The notes beneath the pieces were generated by a model. The model had not been told where the DNA came from, did no database searches, and saw only the letters and a list, made by a program, of their open reading frames with translations. Below, piece by piece: positions 1 to 59,977 of a stretch of 64,000 nucleotides of DNA. Numbering within the stretch: position 1 is the stretch's first letter; each line of letters starts with the position of its first letter. The stretch is taken from the sequence record PX880102.1, one strand, 5' to 3'. The stretch is from a phage. The position numbers and the translations under genes are program-made.

Positions 1-105
1 TTTTTGAGCTCGGAATTCTGGATTGCATCTAAAAAATTGATTTACGTGACCGTAATCACGTGTAGTATTACCTTCATTTTCATAAATAGTGTGAACAACA
101 AACAT
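1..105 (-). CDS. 5' end of a minus-strand gene running off the window edge (hypothetical, 30.x-cluster position)
   Basis: ATG at 103-105 overlaps the upstream stop (TAATG); 35 open codons to position 1. Confidence 0.35.
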   Translation of the reverse strand, partial: MFVVHTIYENEGNTTRDYGHVNQFFRCNPEFRAQK

Positions 106-941
106 TAGAATGCTCCTTGGAAAATATTATCACCACTAGTAGGTCTATTATACAAATACTCTATGCCACCGGGTTTAATATAGTTCCATGTCTGAAATGG
201 ATGTGTCTGATATGGATGATATAGATTATAAGGATTAAATCCAGGAGTTCTCCAGGTAGTGTTCCAAGGAAAAGAATCGTTTTTAACCATCTTCTCAATT
301 ACATCTTTTATAGCTTTTTCACTATCAAAACTTTCTTTATTTTCCTTCGGTGAAAAAAGCTTATTCTCTACATCATTCCATGTATAAACTCGCTGAGCAG
401 TTTTTGGAATATTGTCACGTTCCCCTCGAGCCATCCAATAAACAGGAACACTTAATATTTCACTCGCATGATCGCAGTGATGAGCGAGATCGTCGATATA
501 ACAAATTACGTTATATTTCTCTTTTGCCTTTTTGAACAACTCTTCTTTTGAAGAATCATGACCACACATCATTACTTCCGAGAAGGCACCAGGAAAAAGA
601 GCATTCAAATTAAATTGACGATTCAGCAGAGCGTCAATAGAATCACCCAATGCTGTAACAGCAACAAAATTATAATCTTCTTTTAATTTGTTAATTACAC
701 ACAGAGCATCTTTATACGGAGACAAGTAACGAATAAAATCTGAACGATTGTATTTTTCAATTAACTTGACACCAAGTTCTTCATCACAATTAAAGAGTTT
801 ACCAGGAGAAATAAATTTCTCATCCTGGATCATTTTTAAAATATGTTCTAACGGAAGATTATATTTCTGAGCAAAATAAGGAAGGCCTGATTGCCAGCTT
901 AAACATACTCCATCAATATCAGTTAAAATAGTAGGCTTCAT
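105..941 (-). CDS. hypothetical protein, possible HAD-like hydrolase (278 aa)
   Basis: ORF track; N-terminal DIDGV motif; ATGA coupling to neighbour. Confidence 0.6.
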   Translation of the reverse strand: MKPTILTDIDGVCLSWQSGLPYFAQKYNLPLEHILKMIQDEKFISPGKLFNCDEELGVKLIEKYNRSDFIRYLSPYKDALCVINKLKEDYNFVAVTALGDSIDALLNRQFNLNALFPGAFSEVMMCGHDSSKEELFKKAKEKYNVICYIDDLAHHCDHASEILSVPVYWMARGERDNIPKTAQRVYTWNDVENKLFSPKENKESFDSEKAIKDVIEKMVKNDSFPWNTTWRTPGFNPYNLYHPYQTHPFQTWNYIKPGGIEYLYNRPTSGDNIFQGAF

Positions 942-1402
942 AAAGAGTCTCTTAATAGGTTTAACACATCAATAAATTCAGCTTCGGTTAGTATTGTATC
1001 ATCTTTTGTTAGACCACTAGCCATGCTATGCTTCAAAACTTTTCCTTTCGAGGCTTGTAATGCATCACGAAAGCCCTTGTTTTGGATCGCTGCTTCAAAA
1101 TATGCATTTGTGTATAATTCTTTCCACGCCGGGGAGTATCTTGAAAATGGAACTCCAAGCCAGAAGAGGGTCCCACGGTCCTGAGCTCTAGCATAAGACC
1201 TTCCAGCTTGTTGGGCGGCAAGCCCGGATAACCCAAATATACGACGTTGTTGTTCAACGTTTTTCACCTTGCACCCTTGGAGGAATCCTTCAAGACCTCC
1301 AAATTGAATACCATCCATAACGAAAGGCCAATGGGCGAAATTACTTAATGCACATGATGGCCACCTAAAATTACTTCTAATCTCTAACTCAGACATTTTC
1401 AA
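938..1402 (-). CDS. YbiA/NADAR-like (DUF1768-like) protein, 154 aa
   Basis: SNFAHWPF...DG motif pattern recalled for YbiA-type domains; overlapping stop/start with flanking genes. Confidence 0.55.
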   Translation of the reverse strand: MKMSELEIRSNFRWPSCALSNFAHWPFVMDGIQFGGLEGFLQGCKVKNVEQQRRIFGLSGLAAQQAGRSYARAQDRGTLFWLGVPFSRYSPAWKELYTNAYFEAAIQNKGFRDALQASKGKVLKHSMASGLTKDDTILTEAEFIDVLNLLRDSL

Positions 1403-1595
1403 TGCTTATAATTTCAACATCAGCCCAATGACCATAGTTTGGTAGACGAAATTCAACTGGCCAGTCACTGCCTTTTTCTAATATAATAGACTTAACTTGT
1501 GGTTCTTCGTGTTCATCAGTATACGGATTTTTATCTGTTACTTTATATGTGACCTTAATGTACTGAATTCCAAAAATCTTATTAATTATATTCAT
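1389..1595 (-). CDS. hypothetical protein (68 aa)
   Basis: ORF track; translationally coupled in minus-strand operon. Confidence 0.5.
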   Translation of the reverse strand: MNIINKIFGIQYIKVTYKVTDKNPYTDEHEEPQVKSIILEKGSDWPVEFRLPNYGHWADVEIISIENV

Positions 1596-1789
1596 ACTAT
1601 TTCCTTTAATCCGTAGATAGGAGATAATTCATCGCCCATACGAAGGTCTTCATTTCCATCTACCCAAGAAACAATATAAGCCTTTTTTACTTGAACATCT
1701 CCCAATTTAAATGCGGGTAAAACCTTAGAAATTAATCCAGGTATACCAACTCCCTTTAATTCAACAGTTTGGCCTAAAAAGAATTTCAT
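1592..1789 (-). CDS. hypothetical protein (65 aa)
   Basis: ORF track; ATGA overlap. Confidence 0.5.
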   Translation of the reverse strand: MKFFLGQTVELKGVGIPGLISKVLPAFKLGDVQVKKAYIVSWVDGNEDLRMGDELSPIYGLKEIV

Positions 1790-2076
1790 TAGAACCTCAT
1801 CTGAAAACCATGTGATTTAACATTACCACCATTAATATCAGAACTATTAATTTCACGTGCAATTGAGGGATCAATGTCAATTTCGCCATTAAGTTTAATG
1901 ATAGACAAAGTATCACGCCCATTTACTGTGCGGAACTCTAAAGGACAAACCACATCAACGTAGTTTTTAATCGATTCACTGGTAGGCTGCAAATGAGCAG
2001 GAAGGTCTTTAGGTGCCTTTGAGAAAACCACTTCACAGAAATTTTTACGAGTATCAAAATAAGTAGTCATAAACAT
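1789..2076 (-). CDS. hypothetical protein (about 95 aa; start taken at the internal ATG after GAGGAAA)
   Basis: ORF track 1789..2127; longer start would read through an intergenic hairpin. Confidence 0.5.
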   Translation of the reverse strand: MFMTTYFDTRKNFCEVVFSKAPKDLPAHLQPTSESIKNYVDVVCPLEFRTVNGRDTLSIIKLNGEIDIDPSIAREINSSDINGGNVKSHGFQMRF

Positions 2077-2093
2077 AATATTTTCCTCAGTAA

Positions 2094-2107
2094 GGGGCCG
2101 AAGCCCC
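2094..2107 (-). other. intergenic GC hairpin immediately 5' of an RBS
   Basis: GGGGCTTCGGCCCC; no U-run on the minus strand. Confidence 0.4.
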
Positions 2108-2116
2108 TGTTTTATT

Positions 2117-2482
2117 TTAAATATCAAATTCGTTAAGAACTACATCAAAGATTGCTTCAAGATGCTCAGGTTTAGCTTTGTTAATCAGAATATGACGAAT
2201 CCAAGTTTTAACCAGAAGCTTGCGATTAGCACCATTCCAGCAAGGATGAGTCCCTAAATCGCGTCGACGGAAATCATCATCTAGAGCGACTTTAAAGTTG
2301 GAACCTTCCATCGTGATTGAAACCGTGATACCGTTTTCAAATCGCATATAAACGTAGTTAGGAGTCATATACTGTTCAATTTCGCATACTGATCCATTTT
2401 GATGTTTCCAAAGGCAAATAGTATCAATAGAACCTGCAATACCGTTAGAAACATATTTACGTTCAAAGTTGATGTAGTTCAT
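2117..2482 (-). CDS. hypothetical protein (121 aa)
   Basis: ORF track 2117..2548 trimmed; the first 22 codons are the early promoter/leader; GGAGAATAAAATG RBS. Confidence 0.55.
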   Translation of the reverse strand: MNYINFERKYVSNGIAGSIDTICLWKHQNGSVCEIEQYMTPNYVYMRFENGITVSITMEGSNFKVALDDDFRRRDLGTHPCWNGANRKLLVKTWIRHILINKAKPEHLEAIFDVVLNEFDI

Positions 2483-2514
2483 TTTATTCTCCAGATGTTT
2501 AATTGCGGTACAGG

Positions 2515-2548
2515 TATATAATATCATATCCTGTACCAAAGTAAACAA
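2515..2548 (-). promoter_or_regulatory. T4-type early promoter (GTTTAC -35, 17-18 nt, TATTAT -10)
   Basis: gtaaac at 2541-2546 on plus strand; -10 near 2518-2523. Confidence 0.5.
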
Positions 2549-2881
2549 TTATTTTACTACTTTCCAGTGCTGCATGTCAAGTTTACCAACTTTTTTCATC
2601 TTCTCAATTAAGCGTTCGGCGCGTTGGCGAGCTGTAACATAATACCATTCACCCAATTCATTTTGTTCAATTTTTCCAACGATTACTGTGTTCAATTCAT
2701 AAATCCAACCAGTAAAGAAATTATGAACTTGAATTGTAAAGGTGAAATCTGTTCCCATACCTTCTGTTGTTTCTACTTCAATAATATCACCTTCAACTGC
2801 CATTAAGAACCACATAGTTTCATCATATTTACCGTTGAAGCATTTAGTTTTAACTGCAGCGTTCAGATTAATCGTTTTCAT
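2549..2881 (-). CDS. hypothetical protein (110 aa)
   Basis: ORF track; early promoter and terminator immediately upstream. Confidence 0.55.
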   Translation of the reverse strand: MKTINLNAAVKTKCFNGKYDETMWFLMAVEGDIIEVETTEGMGTDFTFTIQVHNFFTGWIYELNTVIVGKIEQNELGEWYYVTARQRAERLIEKMKKVGKLDMQHWKVVK

Positions 2882-2904
2882 TTTATTCTCCTTTGTTTGT
2901 GTAA

Positions 2905-2940
2905 GATAATACTATCACAAAGGAACCATACTGTAAACAA
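2905..2940 (-). promoter_or_regulatory. T4-type early promoter
   Basis: GTTTAC (2933-2938 rc) and TAGTAT -10; directly after terminator. Confidence 0.5.
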
Positions 2941-2961
2941 CTTTGTGCAATCTTTGGAAAA

Positions 2962-2986
2962 TAAAAAAGGACTCCCGAAGGAGTCC
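2962..2986 (-). terminator. intrinsic terminator (GGACUCC-UUCG-GGAGUCC then U6)
   Basis: 7 bp GC-rich stem, tetraloop, T-run at 2963-2968. Confidence 0.7.
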
Positions 2987-2991
2987 TCAAC

Positions 2992-3168
2992 TTATGCTTT
3001 CTGCTTACCAAAACGAGAAGCATCATCTCGAAGAACCGCACGTGCTCGGCGCATGATCTTCTCAACAGTTTGATTGATACGAGAGTTCGACCCACGCTTG
3101 TAGCCAGCGCGTTTAGAATCACCAACTTTCTTTTCAACTGCTTTCTTTGCTTTAGCTTGTTTTGCCAT
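2992..3168 (-). CDS. small highly basic protein (58 aa, Lys/Arg-rich)
   Basis: ORF track 2992..3210 trimmed to ATG at 3166-3168. Confidence 0.45.
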   Translation of the reverse strand: MAKQAKAKKAVEKKVGDSKRAGYKRGSNSRINQTVEKIMRRARAVLRDDASRFGKQKA

Positions 3169-3456
3169 TATAAATTCTCTTTTAAATGAAAATGCAGGAC
3201 TTATTGGCATTGCCTGCGCAAGCCCTCAAGGGGAACATAGGTTTTTGAATATTTAACGACCAGGATAACCATAAACCCGTCATCATACACCAAGACTTAC
3301 ACAGATAACACTTTTCTGACGTATGATAGTAACATTCAAGAGGTACACCATAAAACTGCCGGGGTCTTAAAACTATAATGATTCGCAAATCATTAATCAG
3401 ACAGTTCGATGGCTCCTCGATTTTAGCTCACACTAAGGCAGTGAATCTCCAATAAA

Positions 3457-3705
3457 TTACTTCAGTGTTACCACAAAGTGACGAACTGCTTTTCGTGCAG
3501 CAGAAGCCAAAGGCTTAGCATATTTAAGTTCATCTTTTTCCTGAAGCTCAGCAGCTAATGCAGTTTGAGCAGGATTCAGATGTTTGAAATAACGCAGGAT
3601 TTCAAGAGCTTCGGCTTCAACATCAATAGATGCGCCATAGTTTTCGTGACCATTATTCCATGCGTTTCGTTGCAGTTCAAGAGCGTGTTGTAATTGTTTA
3701 ATCAT
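3457..3705 (-). CDS. rIII: lysis inhibition accessory protein rIII (82 aa)
   Basis: 82 aa; sequence and position next to gene 31 match T4 rIII. Confidence 0.8.
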   Translation of the reverse strand: MIKQLQHALELQRNAWNNGHENYGASIDVEAEALEILRYFKHLNPAQTALAAELQEKDELKYAKPLASAARKAVRHFVVTLK

Positions 3706-3844
3706 TTAAAAATTCTCGTTAGAGATTAAAACTCGGTAGTCACGTTCTTCTGAATTTCATCTTCTTTCGACAGATCTCTCAGTTGTAGACTACCACATAG
3801 AATTGTTCGGTTAACTTATTATTCCGACACCCAATTCATATTAT

Positions 3845-3852
3845 TATTTATA
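3845..3852 (-). promoter_or_regulatory. candidate late promoter TATAAATA (upstream of rIII)
   Basis: exact TATAAATA on minus strand immediately after gene 31 stop. Confidence 0.35.
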
Positions 3853-4188
3853 TCACTTATAAAGACACGGAATAGCTTTATAGTGACAAGTGACGAATTT
3901 TTGTTTAATTTCTTTTGGCTGCTTAAGACCCAGAGCTACAAAAGGATGCGGAACGTTTCGAATTTGACCAACTGGAAGAGAAGTCAAATCACCAACTTCG
4001 CAGAAACCTTCAGGAACATCAGGACCAACAGAGTGAACTACACACAGTTCAGGAACTTCACCTTGAACACGTTTACCGATAATAAGTCCTGATTCTGTAA
4101 CTTCTTCATCACCGGCTTGTGCAGGTTCAGAAACTAAAATAACATATTCACCGACAGCACGAATTGGTAGCTGTTGTACTTCAGACAT
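3853..4188 (-). CDS. 31: gp31 capsid-folding co-chaperonin (GroES analogue), 111 aa
   Basis: 111 aa, [21 protein letters not shown]... matches T4 gp31; position between rIII and cd. Confidence 0.85.
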
Positions 4189-4212
4189 CGTTTTTCCTTT
4201 TTGTTAACAGAT

Positions 4213-4245
4213 GAATTAATAATAACAAATAATTCTTAAAGCATT
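4213..4245 (-). promoter_or_regulatory. candidate MotA-dependent middle promoter for gene 31
   Basis: AATGCTTTA MotA-box-like element about 11 nt upstream of an AT-rich -10. Confidence 0.35.
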
Positions 4246-4553
4246 TATTTACCAATAAATTGGAGCAAATGCTCAACTTTCATACCATTAACGGAAATCA
4301 ATTTGTCAATAGAAAAACCTCGCCATGCACCAAGCTCAACATCAAATACTGGAATCATGTCAGTAGATTCTTTCCGAGTAGATTCAGTCAATTTACCAGT
4401 TTGCATGGTTGGCATAAAGTCCGCATCACGAGTGCCTTTCATAGTACGAATAGTACCATCAGACTTTTCAAAAACTACGTTTGAAACCCCCATGGACAAT
4501 TTAGTTTTCAAAATTTCACGAATTGCTACTTTTTGTTCAGTCGTCAGTTTCAT
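4245..4553 (-). CDS. hypothetical protein (102 aa)
   Basis: ORF track; synteny with T4 31.x. Confidence 0.55.
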   Translation of the reverse strand: MKLTTEQKVAIREILKTKLSMGVSNVVFEKSDGTIRTMKGTRDADFMPTMQTGKLTESTRKESTDMIPVFDVELGAWRGFSIDKLISVNGMKVEHLLQFIGK

Positions 4554-41375: not shown

Positions 41376-43553
41376 TTAGGCCGCAAGGGCCTTCATAGTT
41401 TTAGCGATTTGGGAGACTTCATCATCGCTTAAAGAGCTGCGATAACCGATGAAGTCGGAAACAATACGGAATTTCTTGGTAAACTCAGCAACCATTTTAT
41501 CACTGTTTTTTGAAGCATTATTTGATAATACATCAAAAAGATTAGTTACTGTCCAGATGTCATGACCGATGGTATCTTTTCCACCATTAAAATATACACC
41601 ACGCAGTGAACTAACTATATTAGCGAGTCGTGTATATTCTTCAGAAACTTCATCGGTACTGAAGTACTTCATCATAAAATCTAGTTCAGGATGCTTGATA
41701 ATTTTATCAATATATCGTTGAGCTGAACTTGAATAACCTACATACTTATCATAATCTACAGCATCAAAAGCATCTACATATAAATCACGCAAAGCTTCAA
41801 AAATACATTGGCACTGACCAAGCTCTTTTACCTTTTTCTGCAAAAGCGGACGAATAACATAAAATTCATTAATGCCAATAAGATTAGCCATACGAATCAA
41901 AATATTCATAGATGGATGACAAAGCGATGTAGTACCATCCATAGAGAAAATATCAGAACGATGCATGTACGCTACATAACCAGTAATTTCATCTGCTTCT
42001 GATGTAAGTGTAAATAGTTCCTCTTTTTCCCATCGCCCATCTTTAATTTCAAACTTAAATGCTGTAGCAGCTTTAGGACGAGGAGCTTTACTTTTAACTG
42101 CCTTCGGAATATAACTTTTAACTAAAGCTTCAATTTCTGACAAATAATGAATGTTAACTTCATCACTTTCAAACATTGCCATAATATCAGGGAGTAAATC
42201 AATCTGCGATTCTACTTCCGGATTAATAAACAAAAGACGCTCATTATGATGAATATTCAAAGTGTTATTAAATTCTTTATCATCTAACGCATGCGCTAAT
42301 CCACGGACAATATTAACGCGATTTTTAATATTATCAATAACGATATTAATTTTTGTTGTATTAATACCGAACAGACGATAACTTGATGCAACGGCTGAAG
42401 TTTCATGACTTTGCTTAATGCGTTTCAGTCGAGGGTCAAGATTTACTTCATACACAACTCCTGCATTGCATAGCTTACTATCTGGTTCAAACATGCTTTG
42501 CATCTTCTTATATGACAGATTTTTAGTCGTAAATTTGACTGAATTACTAATCATATAATCTCGAGCAGAATATCCCATCTTCATCAATTCACGGTATGTA
42601 TGACGAGGAGATGTAGATTCTTTAAATCGTTTTACATCTTCATTGAATGCCTTCTCACTAAGCTCTTTAACACGCTCAATAATATTTTTACGAGTACGAT
42701 CATCTAGTGAAAGAGCTTCGCGTGATGGAGCAATATCAAGTGAACCCATTGGAAACTTAATGTAATTCACTTCATTACGGATGCTTAACCAGTTACGGTC
42801 TCTAATAACACCATCGATAGGATAAACAATACCACCGTAGATAGCATATAATCCACCACGATCTGGCCAGTATCTTTCTGGATTTACACCGTAATAATCA
42901 TCAAAATCCGGAAAATAATCAATTTCGCGGTCAAGACCATTAATGATAGCTAAATCTTTGAATGGTCGCATGATATAAGAAACTTCATAAGCAAAGTTTC
43001 TAAAGTCTTTTTCTTCAACTGGAACTACGATTTCAATACCAGTTTTATCATCTGGACCCATTTCTTTCACGAATGTAGGTTTAATTTGTGGACCATCGCC
43101 ATCCATGTAAGCTACATAACCACGAATTTCACCTTTATGATACGAAGTAATACTAAATGTATCAGTATAACTAAACGGAGATTTAGAACCTAAACCAAAT
43201 CCGCCAATGAAATCGTTAGATTCGGCTTTAGATGAACTGAAATATGAATTATACAAACCAGAAGAATTATCATCACCTTGAATATCAAAATCACTCATAC
43301 CCGGACCAAAATCTCGGCAAACAAATCGTGGATCTAAACGTCCAGGAACTTGAATGATAAATTTTTCAGGATTTCCATTGAGAGCATGGGCATCAATCAT
43401 GTTGGTAATCAATTCACGGACTACTGCGCGAATCTTGTTTGTGTACAAATCAGATGATAGAATTTTAAATACTTTAGGAGATGCTGTGATGCTAAATGCT
43501 TTTGATTTAGAACCATTACCAAGAATTGTTTCTTTTTCAGTGGTGATAATCAT
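41376..43553 (-). CDS. rIIA: rIIA protein (725 aa), GHKL-type ATPase fold at N-terminus
   Basis: 725 aa; N-terminal [10 protein letters not shown] Bergerat-fold motif. Confidence 0.9.
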
Positions 43554-53152: not shown

Positions 53153-53755
53153 TTATAGATTAAATCCTTCAAAATCAAGAGTATAGATAGTGTATGTTGA
53201 ATACTTTTTATACTCATATCTATCTGCAATTCTAAATACACTTCCAGCTGGTATCATTACTTCTTGTTCATCTGAAACTAATTCCATATTACGATAACGA
53301 TGGCTATCCGGAAACTTAAAGTTTGGATTGTATTCTTTACAGCGTAGAGCTTTTATAGCATACTCCTGGAAATTGAATACCATAGGAGCTTTGAATTCAA
53401 AAATAACCTGTGTGTTATACTCTAAACCAGAAGCAAAATGTAGAGCTATATTTTTATCATATGAAGCTGATACGACTTTATCAAATGTAATAATATCAAT
53501 TCCTTGATTTAACACCTGCTTAGTCTCAGCTGGAACACCTCTCCAAAGAGGTTTATCGTTTGGAACCAAACGAGATTTGATTATTTCATTTAACCAAGTA
53601 TGGTCATCTGGTTTGTTGGTAATACAATGAATTAAAAGTTCAATTTCAGATAAATTAAACCCTTCAGAAAGTAATTCTTCACGAATAGAAGCACGCACCG
53701 ATGCATCCATTGATTTTATTTTAAAATCTTTTAGTTGCATTACTGAGTATTTCAT
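53153..53755 (-). CDS. modA: ADP-ribosyltransferase ModA (200 aa)
   Basis: 200 aa; paralog of adjacent gene; Arg/Ser/Glu-type ART motif pattern (LWRGV...). Confidence 0.75.
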   Translation of the reverse strand: MKYSVMQLKDFKIKSMDASVRASIREELLSEGFNLSEIELLIHCITNKPDDHTWLNEIIKSRLVPNDKPLWRGVPAETKQVLNQGIDIITFDKVVSASYDKNIALHFASGLEYNTQVIFEFKAPMVFNFQEYAIKALRCKEYNPNFKFPDSHRYRNMELVSDEQEVMIPAGSVFRIADRYEYKKYSTYTIYTLDFEGFNL

Positions 53756-54375
53756 TCAACTACCTCAATATCATAAACTTTAAATGTTCCAAATGAATCG
53801 TGTAATTTTTCTTTTGAAATAGAAGTTATTCTATACTTTCCAATTGGAATCATCCATTCTTGTTCACGCACAATCATCATTAAGTTATCAGTACGCTCTG
53901 AATCTAACCCATCAGTATCTTCATATGTATACTTAAACTCAGTATTAGGAGAAGAAAGTATAATATCGCTGATATGGTCAGAGTAATTAAAAGCTTTATC
54001 AGTTTTTAAGCGAAGTATTGTTTCAGTGAAATATTCAGCATAAGAAAAAGAACACGCTGTATGCAAACTAGTAGTAAATGAATCTACCCTGTTCGTTGAA
54101 AACACTTCTCCAACTTGTAAATCTTTAATGAGTTCTTTTGTCGATTTTGATATACCACGATATAATTGATAAGGCGATTTAGTTAAATGCTTTTTAATGA
54201 TTTTATTCAACTGTCTGTGAAGAGCTTCATTCTTTTTGGCTTCCATACATTGCCAAAGAATTGACTGTTCAAAGTCAGTAAATTTTTCACAGACCTTTTT
54301 ATACATATCATATTGAAAATCAACGCTTTCGGCTTTTATAGATAACTGTTCAACATCTGCAAGATTAATAATCAT
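53752..54375 (-). CDS. modB: ADP-ribosyltransferase ModB (207 aa)
   Basis: 207 aa; LYRGIS motif; ATGA overlap with modA. Confidence 0.75.
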   Translation of the reverse strand: MIINLADVEQLSIKAESVDFQYDMYKKVCEKFTDFEQSILWQCMEAKKNEALHRQLNKIIKKHLTKSPYQLYRGISKSTKELIKDLQVGEVFSTNRVDSFTTSLHTACSFSYAEYFTETILRLKTDKAFNYSDHISDIILSSPNTEFKYTYEDTDGLDSERTDNLMMIVREQEWMIPIGKYRITSISKEKLHDSFGTFKVYDIEVVE

Positions 54376-59334: not shown

Positions 59335-59378
59335 ATTAACCTTTATTCATAAAAGCATTAAAAATTTGATCGTCAATA
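59332..59378 (-). repeat. direct repeat copy B
   Basis: catattaacctttattcataaaagcattaaaaatttgatcgtcaataga. Confidence 0.7.
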
Positions 59379-59977
59379 GAAACTTTTACTTTAGGATGTT
59401 CTTCAAACGGTAATTCATATCCACATATTACAATTTTGTGATCGATACCAAAATACACAGAAGCAATATGATTAATATTATTTTCAGTGAAATCTAAATC
59501 AACATCAATATCTTTTTGACTAACGCTCAAAGGATAATTAATACGAATAATTCGATTATCTTTAACAAAGATTCCACCGACATACTCTGTGTTGCGTTTA
59601 AAGTTTACACGTTTCCTAAATGAAAAATATTCAGGTTCTTTATGAGCCCGACTCATAGGACACAATGAGTAGCTAGAATAAGAGATGTCAAATCCTACAC
59701 CTTCAATATGAGCCAACGTGTCATGATTAAACCAATTATAATCATATGCCAAATCCATTATATTGTAATATGTGAAAGGCACCGGATTAACATCATATAT
59801 TGTACCTTTAAAATCTGCCCAGGCAACGATTTCATTATCTTTAACAATTACAAAAATTGTGCCAATAAGATATCCACGGTTATTTTCATCAGGCGTTATA
59901 TTATAACATTGCGCATCAGGAAATTTACCGTATTTAAACGGTGGATTTTTGTGCATATAATAAATCATATTATTCAC
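59336..59977 (-). CDS. hypothetical two-repeat protein (213 aa) at the T4 61.2 position
   Basis: two internal VKDN-core repeats; tail shared with 58978..59334. Confidence 0.55.
   Translation of the reverse strand: MNNMIYYMHKNPPFKYGKFPDAQCYNITPDENNRGYLIGTIFVIVKDNEIVAWADFKGTIYDVNPVPFTYYNIMDLAYDYNWFNHDTLAHIEGVGFDISYSSYSLCPMSRAHKEPEYFSFRKRVNFKRNTEYVGGIFVKDNRIIRINYPLSVSQKDIDVDLDFTENNINHIASVYFGIDHKIVICGYELPFEEHPKVKVSIDDQIFNAFMNKG

Follow-up and report, generated by a model that had tools for sequence, protein, structure and literature searches.

Background

Bioinformatic studies had earlier grouped the gp30.3 proteins as the phage clade within the NADAR superfamily, and are cited by Schuller et al. 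2023 (PMC11543638) and by a 2024 paper in Toxins (PMC11125620). According to the latter, a recombinant NADAR of phage T4 cleaves ADP-ribose from DNA when it is linked to guanosine but not when it is linked to thymidine, and the protein fails to rescue E. coli from DarT1 (PMC11125620). The construct is described in Methods 4.2 of that paper as 'E. coli T4 phage NADAR (gp30.3; residues 1-208)', against 152 aa in the T4 reference record. Possible reasons are an origin in a different phage and a mistake in the residue numbers.

Johannesman et al. 2025 (PMC11825919) used recombination into RB69 to map the DarTG1 resistance of T2 and T4 to gene 30.3, which they renamed adfN. [quoted passage not shown] The RB69 allele has lost the C-terminal helix of the protein through a one-base insertion (frameshift), and is defective and DarTG1-sensitive. 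AdfN-T4 carrying E36A, K43A or an RB69-like truncation is impaired, with partial in vivo activity kept by E36A and K43A. Purified AdfN strips ADP-ribose from DarT1-modified DNA and the E36A protein does not; the same study reports no two-hybrid interaction between AdfN and DarT1 and no effect on DarTG2 (PMC11825919). In a transposon screen of T4, insertions in 30.3/adfN are lost on the DarTG1 host only (bioRxiv 10.1101/2025.11.20.689424). As published, T-even phages need gp30.3/AdfN to resist DarTG1, and it suffices for that resistance. Full activity of AdfN-T4 is nevertheless confined to T-even infection, and its authors postulate an additional phage factor; non-T-even phages are helped weakly, and uninfected cells are not rescued from DarT1.

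The active site has been described in comparable detail. In NADAR proteins a Glu and a Lys on the first core helix contact the distal ribose and the adenine of ADP-ribose, and E36 and K43 of AdfN-T4 were chosen for mutation from the ADP-ribose contacts E43 and K50 of the Phytophthora nicotianae enzyme (PnNADAR). A second catalytic residue, in or after the last strand, is Glu in the YbiA family, Asp in the DarT1-linked NADARs and His in phage gp30.3 (PMC11125620, PMC11543638). The T4 enzyme, with His in place of the second acid, is still active both in vitro and in vivo.

Genome context and the 30.3 gene

The window, the whole stretch of 64,000 nucleotides of phage DNA analysed here, is part of a Tequatrovirus (T4-like) genome. 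Over its first 3.5 kb it matches 946 phage records, with ~97% identity to the best of them, and the gene order 30.2, 30.3, 30.4 ... 30.9, rIII, 31, 31.1, 31.2, cd agrees with phage T4. The sequence-only reading had placed the gene in the 30.x accessory cluster, and its neighbours are indeed 30.2 and 30.4, the T4 arrangement. At 53153..54375 on the minus strand are adjacent ORFs of 200 and 207 aa that resemble modA/modB in size and synteny only. These modA/modB-sized ORFs, together with an rIIA-sized ORF at 41376..43553, indicate that the window crosses the T4 map origin. The features around 30.3 are as follows:

938..1396, minus strand: adfN (gene 30.3) coding sequence, 152 aa with the stop codon at 938..940; predicted NADAR-fold DNA ADP-ribosylglycohydrolase of the phage gp30.3 clade
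1397..1402, minus strand: two further codons, TTG AAA, that the sequence-only reading counted in its coordinates; probably untranslated
105..941, minus strand: gene 30.2, downstream neighbour, 278 aa (ORF and T4 synteny)
1389..1595, minus strand: gene 30.4, upstream neighbour (ORF and T4 synteny; phrog_2042, unknown function)

The ORF listing, which takes the first possible start, gives a frame of 154 aa from a TTG at 1402 to 938 on the minus strand. This frame had been reported as a gene of 154 aa at 938-1402; the ORF and its strand are confirmed, and the start is not. In T4 the homologous gene is annotated with 459 nt (152 aa) and an ATG start that corresponds to window position 1396. Because of this annotation, and because the published numbering of E36 and K43 fits the ATG only, the start is placed at ATG 1396 and not at TTG 1402, so the best coordinates for gene 30.3 are 938..1396. 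This ATG overlaps the stop codon of 30.4 (ATGTCTGA, 1396..1389), and the start of 30.2 in turn overlaps the stop codon of 30.3 (ATGA, 941..938). Such start/stop overlaps are the tight packing usual for the T4 early-gene cluster. A scan of positions 1..4300 for promoters and terminators yields 14 sites, against 14.7 expected from shuffled sequence.

The gene is real and constrained. Its product matches PF08010 (Phage_30_3) over profile positions 1-138 of 138 with 233.5 bits (cutoff 36, E 7.7e-70). By tblastn gp30.3 is present in 1511 phage records, near full length in 1504 of them, and the hosts of these phages include Escherichia, Klebsiella, Aeromonas, Acinetobacter, Vibrio and others; a profile search of a protein collection finds >6000 relatives. 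Comparison of the 30.3 frame with related alleles gives dN/dS of 0.05-0.12 at dS up to about 1, which is strong purifying selection on this frame. This ratio and the conservation across the family rule out a chance frame, and also rule out 30.3', the overlapping ORF annotated in T4, as the real gene instead of 30.3.

The 30.3' frame itself lies at 1033..1257 on the minus strand, in the +2 frame inside 30.3, and has 76 codons. Where T4 has its ATG start, the window has ACG, which leaves N46 of 30.3 unchanged, and a TTG follows one codon later. Among relatives of 84-99% identity all but one keep the frame open; of the three checked at 42-47%, two (L017 and L018) have it closed. Two frameshifted 30.3 alleles (P0014 and P0015) lie partly in the 30.3' frame and have a PF11097 match.

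Relationship to T4 gp30.3 and variation among alleles

The window protein is identical to T4 gp30.3 (NP_049816) at 150 of 152 positions. The two differences are Q22H and I125M; H22 and M125 are both present among other members of the family, and both changes are inferred to be neutral in the window allele. The protein is 100% identical to one of phage vB_EcoM_Shinka that is deposited as 'NADAR domain containing protein', and in Shinka this gene adjoins a 'putative phosphatase' (30.2). The window allele is full length and aligns with T4 from end to end, and the RB69-type frameshift is absent.

Several alleles in public collections are truncated, fused or frameshifted (P0012-P0015, P0019, P0022). 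One fused allele joins the N-terminus of gp30.7 to gp30.3 from about residue 72 onward, and another joins the N-terminus of gp30.8 to the C-terminal third of gp30.3. E36 and K43 are missing from all of the defective alleles except P0014, which is frameshifted after about residue 80. These alleles point to frequent deletions in the 30.x cluster and to natural loss of adfN, as in RB69.

Other members of the family are longer or occur in other settings. Proteins of 286-301 aa (P0050, P0061, P0069, P0077, P0098, P0101) belong to the gp30.3 family, and the phrog_652 profile has 296 positions, of which the T4 protein covers 126-272 only. Their length and that of the profile indicate that part of the family carries an N-terminal extension of ~125 residues. 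Some members are found on long contigs labelled as bacterial MAGs (Bacteroides, Limnocylindrales). In Klebsiella phage Roth20 (PQ657793.1; L083, 2501..2950) a full-length homologue with 41.6% identity lies within a cluster of tRNA genes and away from any 30.x-like setting. It is labelled 'anti-CBASS protein acb1', which looks like a misannotation.

Assignment to the NADAR fold

The sequence-only reading had recognised a YbiA/NADAR-like pattern, SNFAHWPF...DG...GLEGF, in the protein. The pattern is present as S18-N19-F20-A21-H22-W23-P24-F25, D28-G29 and G34-L35-E36-G37-F38 in the 152-aa numbering. The comparison with PF08719 that had been proposed as a check fails in its direct form: the window protein has no match to this family even at E up to 1, and the only significant Pfam family is PF08010. 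NCBIfam gives no match for the protein, a single-sequence phmmer search of PDB sequences finds no NADAR and only a chance match (E 0.62), and the PHROGs match is to phrog_652, 'unknown function'. The direct Pfam scan misses the link because Pfam keeps the phage clade as a separate family, PF08010. The same split from PF08719 accounts for the 'hypothetical protein' label that automated pipelines still give to gp30.3 in most of the deposited phage records listed.

Comparisons at the level of the family recover the relationship. PF08719 is matched individually by 17 of 40 gp30.3 family members, at a best E of 2.8e-7. When the family is searched as a profile, E. coli YbiA (2b3w) is the top PDB sequence, with E 0.054 for a profile of 10 sequences and E 0.0024 for one of 40. 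When the family profile is aligned by hhalign with the YbiA sequence of the MG1655 record, the probability is 94.5% and E is 8e-8; the 136 aligned columns span almost the full length of both proteins. In the reverse direction YbiA matches PF08010, weakly. The AlphaFold2 model of gp30.3, built from the 40-sequence alignment, has a pLDDT of 94.2 and a pTM of 0.89, and Foldseek retrieves YbiA with gp30.3 at E 1e-5.

The hhalign and Foldseek results and the relatives that match PF08719 bear out the YbiA/NADAR assignment. Absence of any profile hit to NADAR/YbiA had been named as grounds for giving it up; the direct PF08719 match is absent, and a family-level profile match is present. The case has some methodological value, in that information from the family recovers the NADAR link where a direct Pfam scan fails.

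Active-site residues and features of the clade

The residues implicated in catalysis and the C-terminal helix are located as follows:

1289..1291, minus strand: Glu36, codon GAA, catalytic glutamate, equivalent to YbiA E48 (HMMER and hhalign) and PnNADAR E43
1268..1270, minus strand: Lys43, codon AAG, ADP-ribose-contacting lysine, equivalent to YbiA K55 (HMMER and hhalign) and PnNADAR K50
1028..1030, minus strand: His123, codon CAT, clade-defining histidine, directly after the last beta-strand, 120-122 (model)
944..985, minus strand: C-terminal helix, residues 138-151 (AlphaFold2 model), intact here

E36 and H123 do not vary among the 40 aligned family members, and H123 is likewise fixed in a second family alignment; conservation of K43 in the 40 sequences is 90% or more. 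Conserved catalytic acids had been expected for a NADAR enzyme. The first is in place, as E36 is invariant and aligns with YbiA E48, and the second acidic residue is replaced in this clade by H123. The register against YbiA is uncertain by one residue, since the hhalign sequence alignment pairs H123 with the His next after the YbiA Glu. The same alignment gives gp30.3 no counterpart of the YbiA loop ENDAYWGDGG. The gp30.3 clade also has a TILT motif in which T134 and T137 do not vary, and in the model it has an extra hairpin relative to YbiA at residues 76-85.

Neighbouring genes and a second anti-DarT1 factor

The product of the downstream gene, gp30.2, has HAD-phosphatase-like motifs (D8xD10G, T96, K132/K140, D150-D151) that are invariant in homologues of 44-74% identity, and a weak PHROG match to polynucleotide kinase. 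It has no Pfam or NCBIfam match, and a search of PDB sequences returns only a chance match with the single sequence (E 1.4) and none with a 6-sequence profile. A HAD-like assignment is suggested by the conservation of the motifs, the weak PHROG match and the 'putative phosphatase' label in Shinka only. Several relatives of gp30.2, of 211-229 aa, are without the C-terminal ~80 residues.

Gene 30.2 is adjacent to 30.3, or within about 1.5 kb of it, in T4-like phages down to 42-49% identity. A search for partners compared 13 window neighbours by tblastn with 80 viral loci that carry a gp30.3 homologue. Gene 30.2 is found in 20 of the 80, the same count as for the unrelated syntenic genes 31 and cd, and the loci that bear it are T4-like contexts in all cases but one (L039, a weak match of 26%). 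Divergent gp30.3 homologues have no 30.2 nearby, and de novo clustering of the neighbours in 66 divergent loci gives no family in more than 7 loci. Since 30.2 is no better linked to 30.3 than 31 or cd, synteny yields no candidate for a T-even cofactor beyond the ordinary T4 gene order. The overlap of its start with 30.3, its HAD-like motifs and its proximity to 30.3 in T4-like phages would fit gp30.2 as the postulated T-even factor, forming with AdfN a two-enzyme repair module for ADP-ribosylated DNA, but this is unlikely.

T4 gene 61.2 (adfA), which has also been reported as an anti-DarT1 factor, has a homologue at 59336..59977 on the minus strand, with 73% identity to T4 gp61.2. The start equivalent to that of T4 is at ~59968, and divergence is much greater in the N-terminal 60 residues than elsewhere. 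The protein keeps the His in NINHIAS, which by residue count is the histidine reported to be necessary for DarT1 neutralisation.

Proposed function and alternatives

The sequence at 938..1396 is very probably the adfN gene of a T4-like phage, and its product a minimal ADP-ribosylglycohydrolase of the NADAR/YbiA fold that counters DarTG1. Removal of ADP-ribose from guanine and a role against DarT-type defence had both been put forward in the sequence-only reading, and both have been demonstrated experimentally for T4 gp30.3 (AdfN), the protein that differs from the window protein at only two positions. The activity, the DarTG1 phenotype and the guanine specificity are carried over to the window allele from this 99%-identical protein, and we infer that they apply to it.

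On infection of a DarTG1 host, DarT1 would be released or activated and would ADP-ribosylate guanines in the phage DNA, blocking replication. AdfN would then hydrolyse the N-glycosidic bond between guanine and ADP-ribose, giving back a template that can be replicated. It would do so enzymatically, like the host DarG1 antitoxin, and not by binding the toxin, so that AdfN may be regarded as an orphan antitoxin of an enzymatic (type IV-like) kind carried by the phage. The active site would be formed by Glu36 and Lys43 on the first core helix and by His123 after the last strand. Thymine-linked ADP-ribose, as produced by DarT2, would not be a substrate. The picture of a free-standing hydrolase is incomplete, as AdfN-T4 does not rescue uninfected cells and gives weak help to non-T-even phages.

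Three other readings of the protein can be considered. YbiA of E. coli (RefSeq 'N-glycosidase YbiA') has the same fold and N-terminal motif, YbiA-like NADARs have a reported role in riboflavin metabolism, and a dCMP deaminase gene is present in the same region of the genome. These points would fit a housekeeping N-glycosidase of the YbiA type that acts not on DNA but on small molecules (e.g. reactive riboflavin-pathway intermediates or a nucleotide-like metabolite) and tunes the nucleotide metabolism of host or phage. However, the last-strand Glu of the YbiA subfamily is His in gp30.3, and the published phylogeny sets the gp30.3 clade nearest to the DarT1-associated NADARs, not to the YbiA group. 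Moreover, the sole phenotypes found are specific to DarTG1 and the purified protein acts on ADP-ribosylated DNA, so such a role is very unlikely. Nucleotide metabolism had also been named as an alternative in the sequence-only reading, and finds no support.

It is likewise highly improbable that AdfN mainly removes off-target ADP-ribose left on phage nucleic acids by the phage enzymes Alt, ModA and ModB, with the effect on DarT1 as a by-product. T4-like phages do have three ADP-ribosyltransferases, T4 alt is ~3 kb from 30.3, and the window has the modA/modB-sized ORFs at 53153..54375; the requirement for T-even infection could also be read in this way. But adfN is non-essential on hosts free of DarTG1, where no fitness cost is reported, and the literature covered holds no activity of Alt or the Mod enzymes on guanine in DNA. 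Divergent gp30.3 homologues, in addition, occur without any conserved neighbour. Finally, it is scarcely credible that AdfN disarms DarT1 chiefly through binding or sequestration, whether of the toxin or of its DNA substrate, with catalysis dispensable: E36A and K43A do still rescue partially in vivo and enzymatic activity is reportedly dispensable for another phage NADAR, but association of AdfN with DarT1 is absent in the bacterial two-hybrid, the catalytic mutants are clearly impaired with E36A failing to de-ADP-ribosylate in vitro, and the catalytic residues are invariant across the family.

The reading as an anti-DarTG1 hydrolase adds no new biology, as the adfN gene of the window and its function are already known. 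The placement in the NADAR superfamily was made more than a decade ago, de-ADP-ribosylation was reported in 2024, and the gene was identified as the main anti-DarTG1 factor of T-even phages in 2025, which the transposon screen confirms. The gain is one of annotation: with an intact adfN that has all of the catalytic residues and the C-terminal helix, this phage is predicted to be DarTG1-resistant. It also has the homologue of adfA (61.2).

Comparison with known systems

E. coli YbiA (PDB 2B3W), of the YbiA subfamily of PF08719, has about 17-23% identity to the window protein. It has a Glu on the last strand and the loop ENDAYWGDGG, whereas the window protein has His123, shared by all 40 family members, no aligned loop, and the extra hairpin at 76-85. 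The ybiA gene is chromosomal, located between rhlE and dinG, and does not protect against DarT1. The Phytophthora nicotianae NADAR (PDB 8BAU, a complex with ADP-ribose) is a eukaryotic, stand-alone protein with 19% identity, and it has Glu125 where the phage protein has His.

DarG1 (the BC4488 family; G. lovleyi 8BAT and E. coli C7) is the antitoxin counterpart. It has 219 aa, including an N-terminal extension of the fold, whereas the window protein has 152 aa and is without the extension. The catalytic Asp of DarG1 is His in the window protein. DarG1 adjoins DarT1, while the window gene is flanked by 30.2 and 30.4-30.6 with no match to an ART domain, and the phage protein cannot replace DarG1 in uninfected cells.

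Closer in kind are the other phage proteins. AdfN-Bas32 (T5-like), AdfN-Bas60 (Vequintavirinae), AdfM/Tk.4 (T4) and AdfN are all orphan antitoxin-like hydrolases of phages that reverse DNA ADP-ribosylation by DarT. AdfM/Tk.4 differs in its macrodomain fold and acts against the thymine-modifying DarT2 (DarTG2), and AdfN-Bas32 and AdfN-Bas60 belong to other NADAR clades and work without the T-even context. The closest system is T4 gp30.3 itself, AdfN (anti-DarT factor NADAR; PF08010), which agrees with the window gene in its length, its start/stop overlaps and its place between 30.2 and 30.4. The two proteins have in common E36, K43, H123 and an intact C-terminal helix.
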